64,000 nt of DNA from the NCBI RefSeq assembly GCF_054482525.1, contig NZ_CM137006.1, one strand, 5' to 3'. Below, piece after piece: positions 10,414 through 37,522 of the stretch (positions are counted from its first letter, which is position 1; the number at the start of each line of letters is the position of its first letter). The notes under the pieces are model-generated. The model had not been told where the DNA came from, did not search any database, and was given only the letters and a program-made list of their open reading frames with translations. The position numbers and the translations under genes were made by a program.

Positions 10414-11321
<908 letters not shown>

Positions 11322-11845
11322 TCCAGGAGATGCTCCTGCATGGCTTTCAGATATGCATTTTCTGCGCGAAGATAACGCAGCTCATTCTTCATCTCTTCCG
11401 GCGTCATGTTTGCCTCGTTTTCATGGGTATCATCAGAACGGGTCATGCTTTTCTCCTTCCTGCGCCTGATAAAGGCCTCATTACCAGATTTGCGGTAGCC
11501 TTTTATCCAGTTTTTAACCGTGTTGTGGCTGGGAATGTTAAACCGGGCAGCTACCCGGGGTAGAGACTCAGAATGCCCGAGAGCATAAAGAACCACGCAA
11601 AGTTTATCTTCAGGAGAATAGCTACGCTTGTGTCTGCAATCCAGTGCCCGAGGACCGTGAAGAAGAAAAAGATTAATCCAGTGTGAGAGGCTGGTGTGAG
11701 AAAGTTGAAAGAGTTTTGCCGTAGAAATGATGCCTGCATGACCAGCCAGGTAGTGATTTACAGCGGCAAGTTTTACTTCAAATGAATGTTTCATAAACTG
11801 CACCTTCAGATGTCAGATTATGTCCAACATTTGGGGTGCAGTTCA

Positions 11846-19420: not shown

Positions 19421-19426
19421 TATCTT

Positions 19427-19453
19427 AAGCCCTCTCCCGATAGGCGAGGGCTT
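19427..19453. terminator. hairpin between convergent ggt and yhhY (candidate bidirectional terminator)
   Basis: aagccctc ... gagggctt stem. Confidence 0.5.
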
Positions 19454-19480
19454 AAATGACAAACTTAGATTGCAAATTCT

Positions 19481-19969
19481 CTATTTCACCCGCGCCATAT
19501 AATACGCATCGACATATTCACCATTACGTAATGCGTACTTCTTGCCAGTCCCTTCAATCTCAAATCCAAATTTTTTATAGACCTTAATTGCTGGCGCGTT
19601 ATCGACGAACACCGTTAGCTCAATACGATCTACCCGCAACCAGTTGTCGCACATTTCAATCATCTCTCGCATCAGGGCGCTGGCGACGCCGCGATTCTTC
19701 CAACGGGAGTCGACACAAATACCAAAATCGGCAACATGACTGCGGCGTGGGCGCTGTTGCACGTCAATGGTGAGGTGACCCACGACGGTTCCATCAATAC
19801 AGGCAACTAACTGTTTGATGCCGGGACGATCGGCGAGTCGCTCCTGCCACATATGATCGGAAGGATGAGGCACCTGTAGTGTGTTGCAATACACCTCCGG
19901 CTGGGCGTGAATCTGCCTGATGGCCTCGTAATCGCGCGTTTCAGCATGGCGTATCACTATCTCACTCAT
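19481..19969 (-). CDS. yhhY: GNAT-family N-acetyltransferase YhhY
   Basis: Track ORF 19481..20047 trimmed to MSEIVIRHAETRDYEAIRQIHAQ (162 aa). Confidence 0.85.
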   Translation of the reverse strand: MSEIVIRHAETRDYEAIRQIHAQPEVYCNTLQVPHPSDHMWQERLADRPGIKQLVACIDGTVVGHLTIDVQQRPRRSHVADFGICVDSRWKNRGVASALMREMIEMCDNWLRVDRIELTVFVDNAPAIKVYKKFGFEIEGTGKKYALRNGEYVDAYYMARVK

Positions 19970-20061
19970 TCCTTTGTCCTCTTTGGGGTAAATGTCCCTT
20001 TCAACATCATTGACTTTCCAATGCGAGTCAAATGCATTTTTTTGCAAAAAGTGTTGGACAA

Positions 20062-20090
20062 GTGCGAATGAGAATGATTATTATTGTCTC
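20062..20090 (+). promoter_or_regulatory. Fur box overlapping the ryhB promoter
   Basis: aatgagaatgattattatt resembles the GATAATGATAATCATTATC consensus, immediately 5-prime of ryhB. Confidence 0.65.
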
Positions 20091-20180
20091 GCGATCAGGA
20101 AGACCCTCGCGGAGAACCTGAAAGCACGACATTGCTCACATTGCTTCCAGTATTACTTAGCCAGCCGGGTGCTGGCTTTT
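20091..20180 (+). ncRNA. ryhB: iron-responsive small RNA RyhB
   Basis: Sequence matches RyhB as recalled (gcgatcaggaagaccctcgcggagaacctgaaagcacgacattgctcacattgcttccag...); ends in intrinsic terminator ccagccgggtgctggctttttttt. Confidence 0.92.
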
Positions 20181-20301
20181 TTTTGATCTTTCGTTTTCAA
20201 TTTATCCACGGGAAGTGCTTGTGTTCGTTATGCGCACTCCAGTAGGAACCACGTCCGCTTTGCGCTAAGGTGTAAATAATCACCTTAAAAAGGACGAAAT
20301 C

Positions 20302-21339
20302 ATGGTCATCAACTGCGCCTTTATTGGCTTCGGCAAAAGCACCACCCGTTACCATCTGCCGTATGTACTTAACCGCAAGGATAGCTGGCATGTCGCGCAT
20401 ATTTTTCGCCGCCATGCGAAGCCGGAAGAACAGGCCCCCATTTACTCTCATATCCATTTCACCAGCGATCTCGACGAAGTACTAAACGATCCCGATGTTA
20501 AGCTGGTTGTGGTCTGCACCCATGCAGACAGCCACTTCGAGTACGCGAAGCGCGCGCTGGAAGCCGGGAAAAATGTGCTGGTCGAAAAACCGTTCACCCC
20601 GACGCTTGCGCAGGCGAAAGAGCTGTTTGCTCTGGCGAAAAGTAAAGGGCTGACCGTCACGCCATATCAGAATCGTCGCTTTGATTCCTGCTTCCTGACG
20701 GCGAAAAAAGCGATTGAAAGCGGCAAGCTGGGAGAGATTGTCGAAGTGGAAAGCCATTTTGACTATTACCGCCCGGTGGCAGAAACCAAACCTGGGCTGC
20801 CGCAGGATGGCGCGTTCTATGGCCTTGGTGTGCATACGATGGACCAGATTATTTCTCTGTTCGGTCGCCCGGATCACGTCGCTTATGACATCCGCAGCCT
20901 GCGTAATAAAGCCAATCCTGACGACACCTTTGAAGCGCAGCTGTTTTATGGCGACCTGAAAGCCATCGTCAAAACCAGCCATCTGGTGAAAATCGATTAT
21001 CCGAAATTTATCGTTCACGGTAAGAAAGGTTCGTTTATTAAATACGGTATCGACCAGCAGGAAACCAGCCTCAAGGCTAATATTATGCCGGGCGAACCGG
21101 GATTCGCGGCGGATGATTCGGTCGGTGTGCTGGAGTATGTCAATGACGAGGGCGTGACGGTCAGAGAAGAGATAAAGCCGGAGATGGGCGATTACGGGCG
21201 CGTTTATGATGCGTTGTATCAAACCATCACTAACGGTGCGCCAAATTACGTCAAGGAATCTGAAGTTCTTACCAATCTGGAAATCCTTGAACGAGGATTT
21301 GAGCAAGCCTCTCCCTCCACAGTGACTCTCGCGAAGTAA
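20302..21339 (+). CDS. yhhX: NAD(P)-dependent oxidoreductase YhhX (Gfo/Idh/MocA family)
   Basis: 345-aa ORF MVINCAFIGFGKSTTRYHLPYV. Confidence 0.9.
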   Translation: MVINCAFIGFGKSTTRYHLPYVLNRKDSWHVAHIFRRHAKPEEQAPIYSHIHFTSDLDEVLNDPDVKLVVVCTHADSHFEYAKRALEAGKNVLVEKPFTPTLAQAKELFALAKSKGLTVTPYQNRRFDSCFLTAKKAIESGKLGEIVEVESHFDYYRPVAETKPGLPQDGAFYGLGVHTMDQIISLFGRPDHVAYDIRSLRNKANPDDTFEAQLFYGDLKAIVKTSHLVKIDYPKFIVHGKKGSFIKYGIDQQETSLKANIMPGEPGFAADDSVGVLEYVNDEGVTVREEIKPEMGDYGRVYDALYQTITNGAPNYVKESEVLTNLEILERGFEQASPSTVTLAK

Positions 21340-37424: not shown

Positions 37425-37522
37425 TGCCGGATGCGACGTGAACGTCTTATTGGCCTACAAAATCATGCAAATTCAATACATTGCATAAGCCACGTAGGCC
37501 TGATAAGCGTAGCGCATCAGGC
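37425..37522. repeat. BIME: two inverted REP/PU copies
   Basis: gccggatgcgacgtgaacgtcttattggcctac ... gtaggcctgataagcgtagcgcatcaggc. Confidence 0.8.

Follow-up and report, generated by a model that had tools for sequence, protein, structure and literature searches.

What occupies the gap between two oppositely oriented reading frames near position 20,100 of this stretch of DNA (64,000 nucleotides, referred to as the window): a working small RNA gene, the leader of the downstream gene, or a decayed copy? Between a minus-strand open reading frame that extends to 19969 and a plus-strand open reading frame that starts at 20302, the sequence reads GCGATCAGGAAGACCCTCGCGGAGAACCTGAAAGCACGACATTGCTCACATTGCTTCCAGTATTACTTAGCCAGCCGGGTGCTGGC, then eight T. 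A sequence-only reading had recognised this as the small RNA RyhB, situated between yhhY and yhhX. We scanned the whole 64-kb window against Rfam 15 at gathering thresholds. The RyhB family (RF00057) scored 83.1 bits at 20120-20184 on the plus strand (gathering score 55; E 3.6e-14 over all 64 kb), so that the Infernal match stood well above the curated threshold. It spanned positions 1-67 of the 67-position model and was not truncated. RF00057 matched once in the 64 kb, giving no second RyhB copy or paralogue there, and a permissive scan of 19900-20400 (E<=1) returned no other Rfam family. Window positions 20091-20184 (+) are almost certainly E. coli ryhB, the gene for a trans-acting, Hfq-dependent sRNA of ~90-95 nt that is repressed by Fur and spares iron. 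The window's second above-gathering Rfam match was ES036 (RF02751) at 37459-37501 (+), with 46.8 bits against 37.6 (E 2.3e-6). This match lies in the glgP-glpD intergenic region, ~85 nt past the 3' end of glpD and on the strand opposite glpD, and adjoins a fragmentary pseudogene, annotated by PGAP as phosphate ABC transporter substrate-binding protein.

In the curated MG1655 record, the ncRNA gene ryhB (b4451, 'small regulatory RNA RyhB') is annotated at 3580922..3581016 and is flanked by yhhX and yhhY. When the window was aligned to K-12, all bases were identical from upstream of the -35 hexamer through the terminator stem. The ends of the annotated K-12 gene mapped to 20091 (5') and 20184 (3'), which gives a ryhB transcript at 20091..20184 (+), aligned to b4451 throughout, with RF00057 covering 20120-20184. 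Positions 20091-20119, the initial 29 nt of the RNA, lie outside the Rfam model; we assign them to ryhB because they are identical to the K-12 gene. The sole difference within the gene is the length of the terminator T-tract, 8 T at 20177-20184 compared with 9 in K-12. The Rfam score, the base-for-base agreement with the K-12 gene and the shared gene order together bear out the identification of RyhB at this place. The length of 90 nt initially proposed for it needs adjustment, as the annotated RNA reaches the end of the T-tract and is thus up to 94 nt long here and 95 nt in K-12. Likewise, the span first given for the locus, 20062-20185, places it correctly but is slightly off at its edges: the -35 hexamer (20055-20060) falls just outside its start, and 20185 lies 1 nt beyond the T-tract. 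Judged by its sequence, ryhB in this window is an intact, ordinary and already known gene, and none of our results conflicts with this identification.

The gene is close to universal in the species. Of 5,426 complete E. coli genomes, 5,424 contained the 501 bases around ryhB, without exception in the chromosome and with 100% identity in PCN033 and others; as a rule the complete-genome search found the locus once per genome. The matches numbered 5,432 places in those 5,424 genomes, with up to 3 places in a few of them, and the region was absent from the remaining 2. PCN033 is nearly identical to the window, with a gapless alignment over window positions 1-40400 at 99.985% identity. RefSeq/PGAP annotation is blank at ryhB in PCN033 and in all 30 sampled genomes, K-12 BW2952 being one of these, and among the records compared only curated MG1655 carries the ryhB ncRNA. 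The expectation that no CDS track would reveal the gene was therefore accurate (blank in PCN033 and in 30/30 sampled genomes). Listing ryhB is useful because PGAP-style annotation leaves its position blank, and an interpretation of iron, TCA-cycle and oxidative-stress phenotypes of the strain needs the intact regulator and its Fur operator to be known. RyhB is among the best-studied bacterial sRNAs, and the present copy has little significance beyond complete annotation.

The neighbours of ryhB are yhhY (N-acetyltransferase; 19481..19969, minus strand), which lies upstream and is divergent, and yhhX (oxidoreductase; 20302..21339, plus strand), which starts 117 nt past the terminator. Both were assigned from the PCN033 and K-12 annotations, yhhY also from its open reading frame. 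The order yhhY-ryhB-yhhX is the same as in K-12 and in the nearly identical PCN033. Further out, ggt and yhhY are convergent and 60 bp apart (19421-19480), in the window as in PCN033. Between livF and ugpB, at ~10446-11794 (-), the gapless alignment and the PCN033 annotation place the transposase of IS1397, an IS3-family element, with a programmed frameshift.

The same-strand position of yhhX raises the alternative that ryhB and yhhX form an operon, in which the Fur-controlled promoter would serve mainly the yhhX mRNA, RyhB would be its 5' leader and the terminator a leaky attenuator. In keeping with such an arrangement, a simple scan of 19900-20400 found no separate promoter-like site for yhhX in the ryhB-yhhX spacer (20186-20301), nor any besides the ryhB promoter in the region scanned. 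Compared with K-12, the spacer has two substitutions and a 1-nt indel. On plasmids, ~20% of transcription reads through the K-12 ryhB terminator (PMC4509938), and ryhB 'seems to be co-transcribed' with yhhX, as was suggested, not demonstrated, in the same paper. Iron limitation raises yhhX expression, an effect that disappears when ryhB is deleted together with the promoter (PMC8896160, which likewise suggests, but does not show, transcription of yhhX from the ryhB promoter); the Fur site itself was originally assigned to yhhX (PMC2189734). However, termination is ~80% efficient and becomes higher under stress, and read-through products lose Hfq binding, which makes the terminated sRNA the active regulator (PMC4509938). 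Gene order also speaks against a mainly yhhX-directed promoter, since yhhX follows the conserved RyhB core only in Enterobacteriaceae proper (~24 of ~114 loci), but the sRNA, accompanied by its Fur box and terminator, occurs in a much broader range of genera. We regard it as highly improbable that the locus is chiefly a yhhX operon. The operon reading complements the sRNA reading and does not replace the sRNA; yhhX may receive read-through from the ryhB promoter.

Within the gene, it is the terminator tract in which the window differs from K-12. The terminator scan, the predicted fold and the Rfam structure line agreed on a Rho-independent terminator at 20159..20184 (+), which with its long U-tail is the Hfq-binding module of class I sRNAs. 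In the hairpin (20159-20177), 7 pairs, 5 of them G-C, close a 5-nt loop, and a run of 8 T comes next at 20177-20184, in accordance with the GC hairpin and U-tract that the sequence-only reading had placed at the 3' end. The same search gave a second terminator-like site at 20207-20223, which we rejected: its stem is weak (3 G-C), its T-tail is poor, and such sites occur at about chance frequency (2 found versus 0.6 expected).

Could one T fewer have turned the gene into a decayed or silent relic, impaired in its terminator and Hfq tail? The K-12 RNA is 95 nt long with a 9-U tail (PMC4509938), and poly(U) length affects both Hfq binding and termination (PMC4509938, PMC5558911). Against this, all other promoter, operator and RNA bases are identical to those of the functional K-12 gene. 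The exact 66-nt stretch 20130-20195, which includes the 8-T tract, occurred at 100% identity in 438 of 5,424 complete E. coli genomes (~8%); in sampled rows, most other genomes matched at 98.5% over a 67-nt span, as K-12 does, which corresponds to one extra base. Among 116 core-sharing loci of other species, the longest downstream T-run was most commonly 8 (46 loci), with 9 in second place (37 loci). SgrS is functional with a tail of 8 U (PMC4509938), and the terminators of Hfq-binding sRNAs typically carry 'seven or more' T (PMC5558911), a range into which the 8 T of the window fall. We discount a decayed copy because the gene is identical to the functional allele, and we give the relic reading hardly any credence. 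The 8-T allele is instead a common natural variant, normal for the family because it is found in 438 genomes, is the commonest run in the 116 loci and lies within the range of Hfq-binding sRNAs, and its length is within the functional range. We consider it unlikely that the 8-T allele measurably alters how much RyhB is terminated and binds Hfq relative to how much transcription reads through into yhhX. If it did, both the strength of iron sparing and Fur-dependent yhhX expression would be tuned otherwise than in strains with the K-12-type 9 T.

Upstream of the intact ryhB gene, a consensus scan of 19900-20400 found a single sigma-70-like promoter, with the -35 hexamer TGGACA at 20055..20060 (+), an 18-nt spacer and the -10 hexamer TATTAT at 20079..20084 (+), together 10/12 matches. 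The -35 hexamer is identical in K-12, and the -10 hexamer lies 7 nt upstream of the mapped 5' end at 20091. A Fur-box-like motif had been reported in front of the RNA, and we located it at 20070-20088, where 16/19 positions agree with the 19-bp consensus GATAATGATAATCATTATC. A match to this consensus with at most 3 mismatches occurred once in the 64 kb and in 0/100 shuffles. Under the 7-1-7 model, the box reads as two overlapping sites 6 bp apart, at 20069-20083 (2 mismatches) and 20075-20089 (3 mismatches), which together define a Fur operator at 20069..20089 (no strand assigned) that is identical in K-12. The stronger 7-1-7 site is centred at 20076, or -15 relative to 20091. A 25.2-bit Fur site at -15 of ryhB, one of four clustered 'right in front of' the gene, was shifted with purified Fur (PMC2189734), and the predicted centre of the site in the window agrees with this gel-shift-confirmed position. 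The operator covers the -10 hexamer and stops 2 nt short of the transcription start, as is usual where a repressor acts by occlusion.

The notion that this Fur box serves chiefly the divergent yhhY and overlaps the ryhB promoter incidentally draws on the yhhY start codon (19969), ~100 bp from the box, and on the ~50 loci, spread over many genera, in which a yhhY homologue is no more than a few hundred bases away from the core. It has next to no probability, given that the operator covers the ryhB -10 hexamer and leaves 2 nt to the start in the classic repression geometry, that a Fur box also accompanies RyhB copies without yhhY (second copies, and those of Aeromonas and Vibrionaceae), and that Fur repression at this site is attributed to ryhB in the literature (PMC2189734).

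We examined the predicted structure of the RNA and its pairing potential. In the minimum-free-energy fold, nt 1-20 (20091..20110, +) form a 5' stem-loop that is specific to the Escherichia lineage. The conserved core, nt 34-61 (20124..20151, +), is predicted to be largely single-stranded and holds the target-pairing seed; the mean predicted unpaired probability of the core/seed region was ~0.67. Within it, the 9-mer GACAUUGCU (nt 38-46; 20128..20136, +) is a perfect Watson-Crick complement of positions -4..+5 of sodB (AGCAAUGUC), across the AUG, with the sodB leader sequence taken from K-12. Among 2000 dinucleotide shuffles, a complement of at least 9 nt arose anywhere in 47 and over the AUG in 7. 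The core-only duplex with sodB had a predicted energy of -19.3 kcal/mol, compared with -12.0 +/- 2.7 for shuffles, and was attained by 13/1000 of these. The published RyhB/sodB duplex comprises 9 nt of either RNA, with Hfq-dependent repression of ~12-fold (PMC1807950), and the complementarity predicted here agrees with it.

The exact-complement and core-only duplex tests were used in place of a full-length RNAduplex calculation. With the whole RNA (94 nt), RNAduplex ignored intramolecular structure and returned a long, spurious duplex with sodB, and 79/500 shuffles did as well. We also rejected the stability of the whole-RNA fold as evidence, as it was no greater than that of shuffles (z = -0.51). 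Such a result is to be expected when much of an sRNA is a long single-stranded seed, and it provides no independent support. As for coding capacity, no open reading frame of 20 or more aa starts inside 20091-20184, those that overlap this interval begin upstream of the transcription start, and on reading the sequence we found no ATG in the ryhB transcript. RyhB is not known to encode a peptide, and the transcript of the window is predicted to be non-coding.

Release of Fur at low iron, binding of Hfq to the hairpin and U-tail and RNase E-dependent decay of targets are established for the RyhB family. For the present strain, we infer expression and its dependence on Fur, iron and Hfq from the identity to the K-12 gene and from the literature. 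When iron is sufficient, Fe2+-Fur would occupy the operator at 20069-20089, over the -10 hexamer, and block the sigma-70 promoter. Under iron scarcity, Fur would leave the operator, and RyhB would be transcribed from 20091 as far as the terminator with its hairpin and 8 U. Together with the AU-rich stretch preceding them, the hairpin and the U-tail would make up the Hfq-binding module, and Hfq would present the single-stranded core (nt 34-61) to targets such as the sodB and sdhCDAB mRNAs, which encode non-essential iron proteins. On sodB, nt 38-46 would pair with -4..+5 over the start codon, with a block of translation and RNase E-dependent decay as the expected outcome, and iron would be spared.

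We searched the core in a collection of species-representative genomes. The exact 28-nt core (20124-20151) was present in at least 120 loci, in Enterobacterales, Aeromonas, Photobacterium, Aliivibrio and Salinivibrio, and 116 of the copies had enough flanking sequence for comparison. A Fur box with at least 14/19 matches was found within 80 nt upstream in 110/116 loci, compared with 8/580 random 80-nt windows from the same loci, and a terminator was found downstream in 105/116. The 33 nt on the 5' side of the core were poorly conserved, reaching at least 70% ungapped identity to E. coli in 12/116. The Rfam model has its 5' boundary where it does because these 33 nt diverge across genera. Yersinia, Serratia, Photorhabdus, Pantoea, Pectobacterium and others each have two copies of the core. 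In two Salinivibrio species, two exact 28-nt cores were found in tandem, ~300 nt apart on the same strand (L064, 10919-11253; L084, 11696-12029), a local duplication unlike the dispersed two copies of Yersinia, Serratia and Photorhabdus.

Among known systems, the closest counterpart is K-12 MG1655 ryhB (b4451; SraI; RF00057), which has the same hexamers, Fur operator, 5' end, body, seed, terminator hairpin and yhhY/yhhX neighbours. It differs in its terminator tract, with 9 T where the window has 8. The two regions also differ beyond yhhY: K-12 carries a ~3.4-kb island, yhhZ (putative endonuclease)-yrhA::IS1E-yrhD-yrhB, between yhhY and ggt, which is absent from the window and from PCN033. With respect to read-through, the SgrS-setA pair is similar in that SgrS is likewise an Hfq sRNA induced by stress, whose intrinsic terminator is leaky and precedes a same-strand gene (PMC4509938); co-transcription of SgrS and setA has been demonstrated, whereas that of ryhB and yhhX has been suggested. 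Other gammaproteobacterial RyhBs, including those of two-copy genera and the longer Vibrio RyhB, share the 28-nt core, the upstream Fur box and a terminator with 7-10 T. They diverge in the 5' part, the spacing between core and terminator, the copy number and the neighbours, and the window has the single-copy, Enterobacteriaceae-type arrangement.
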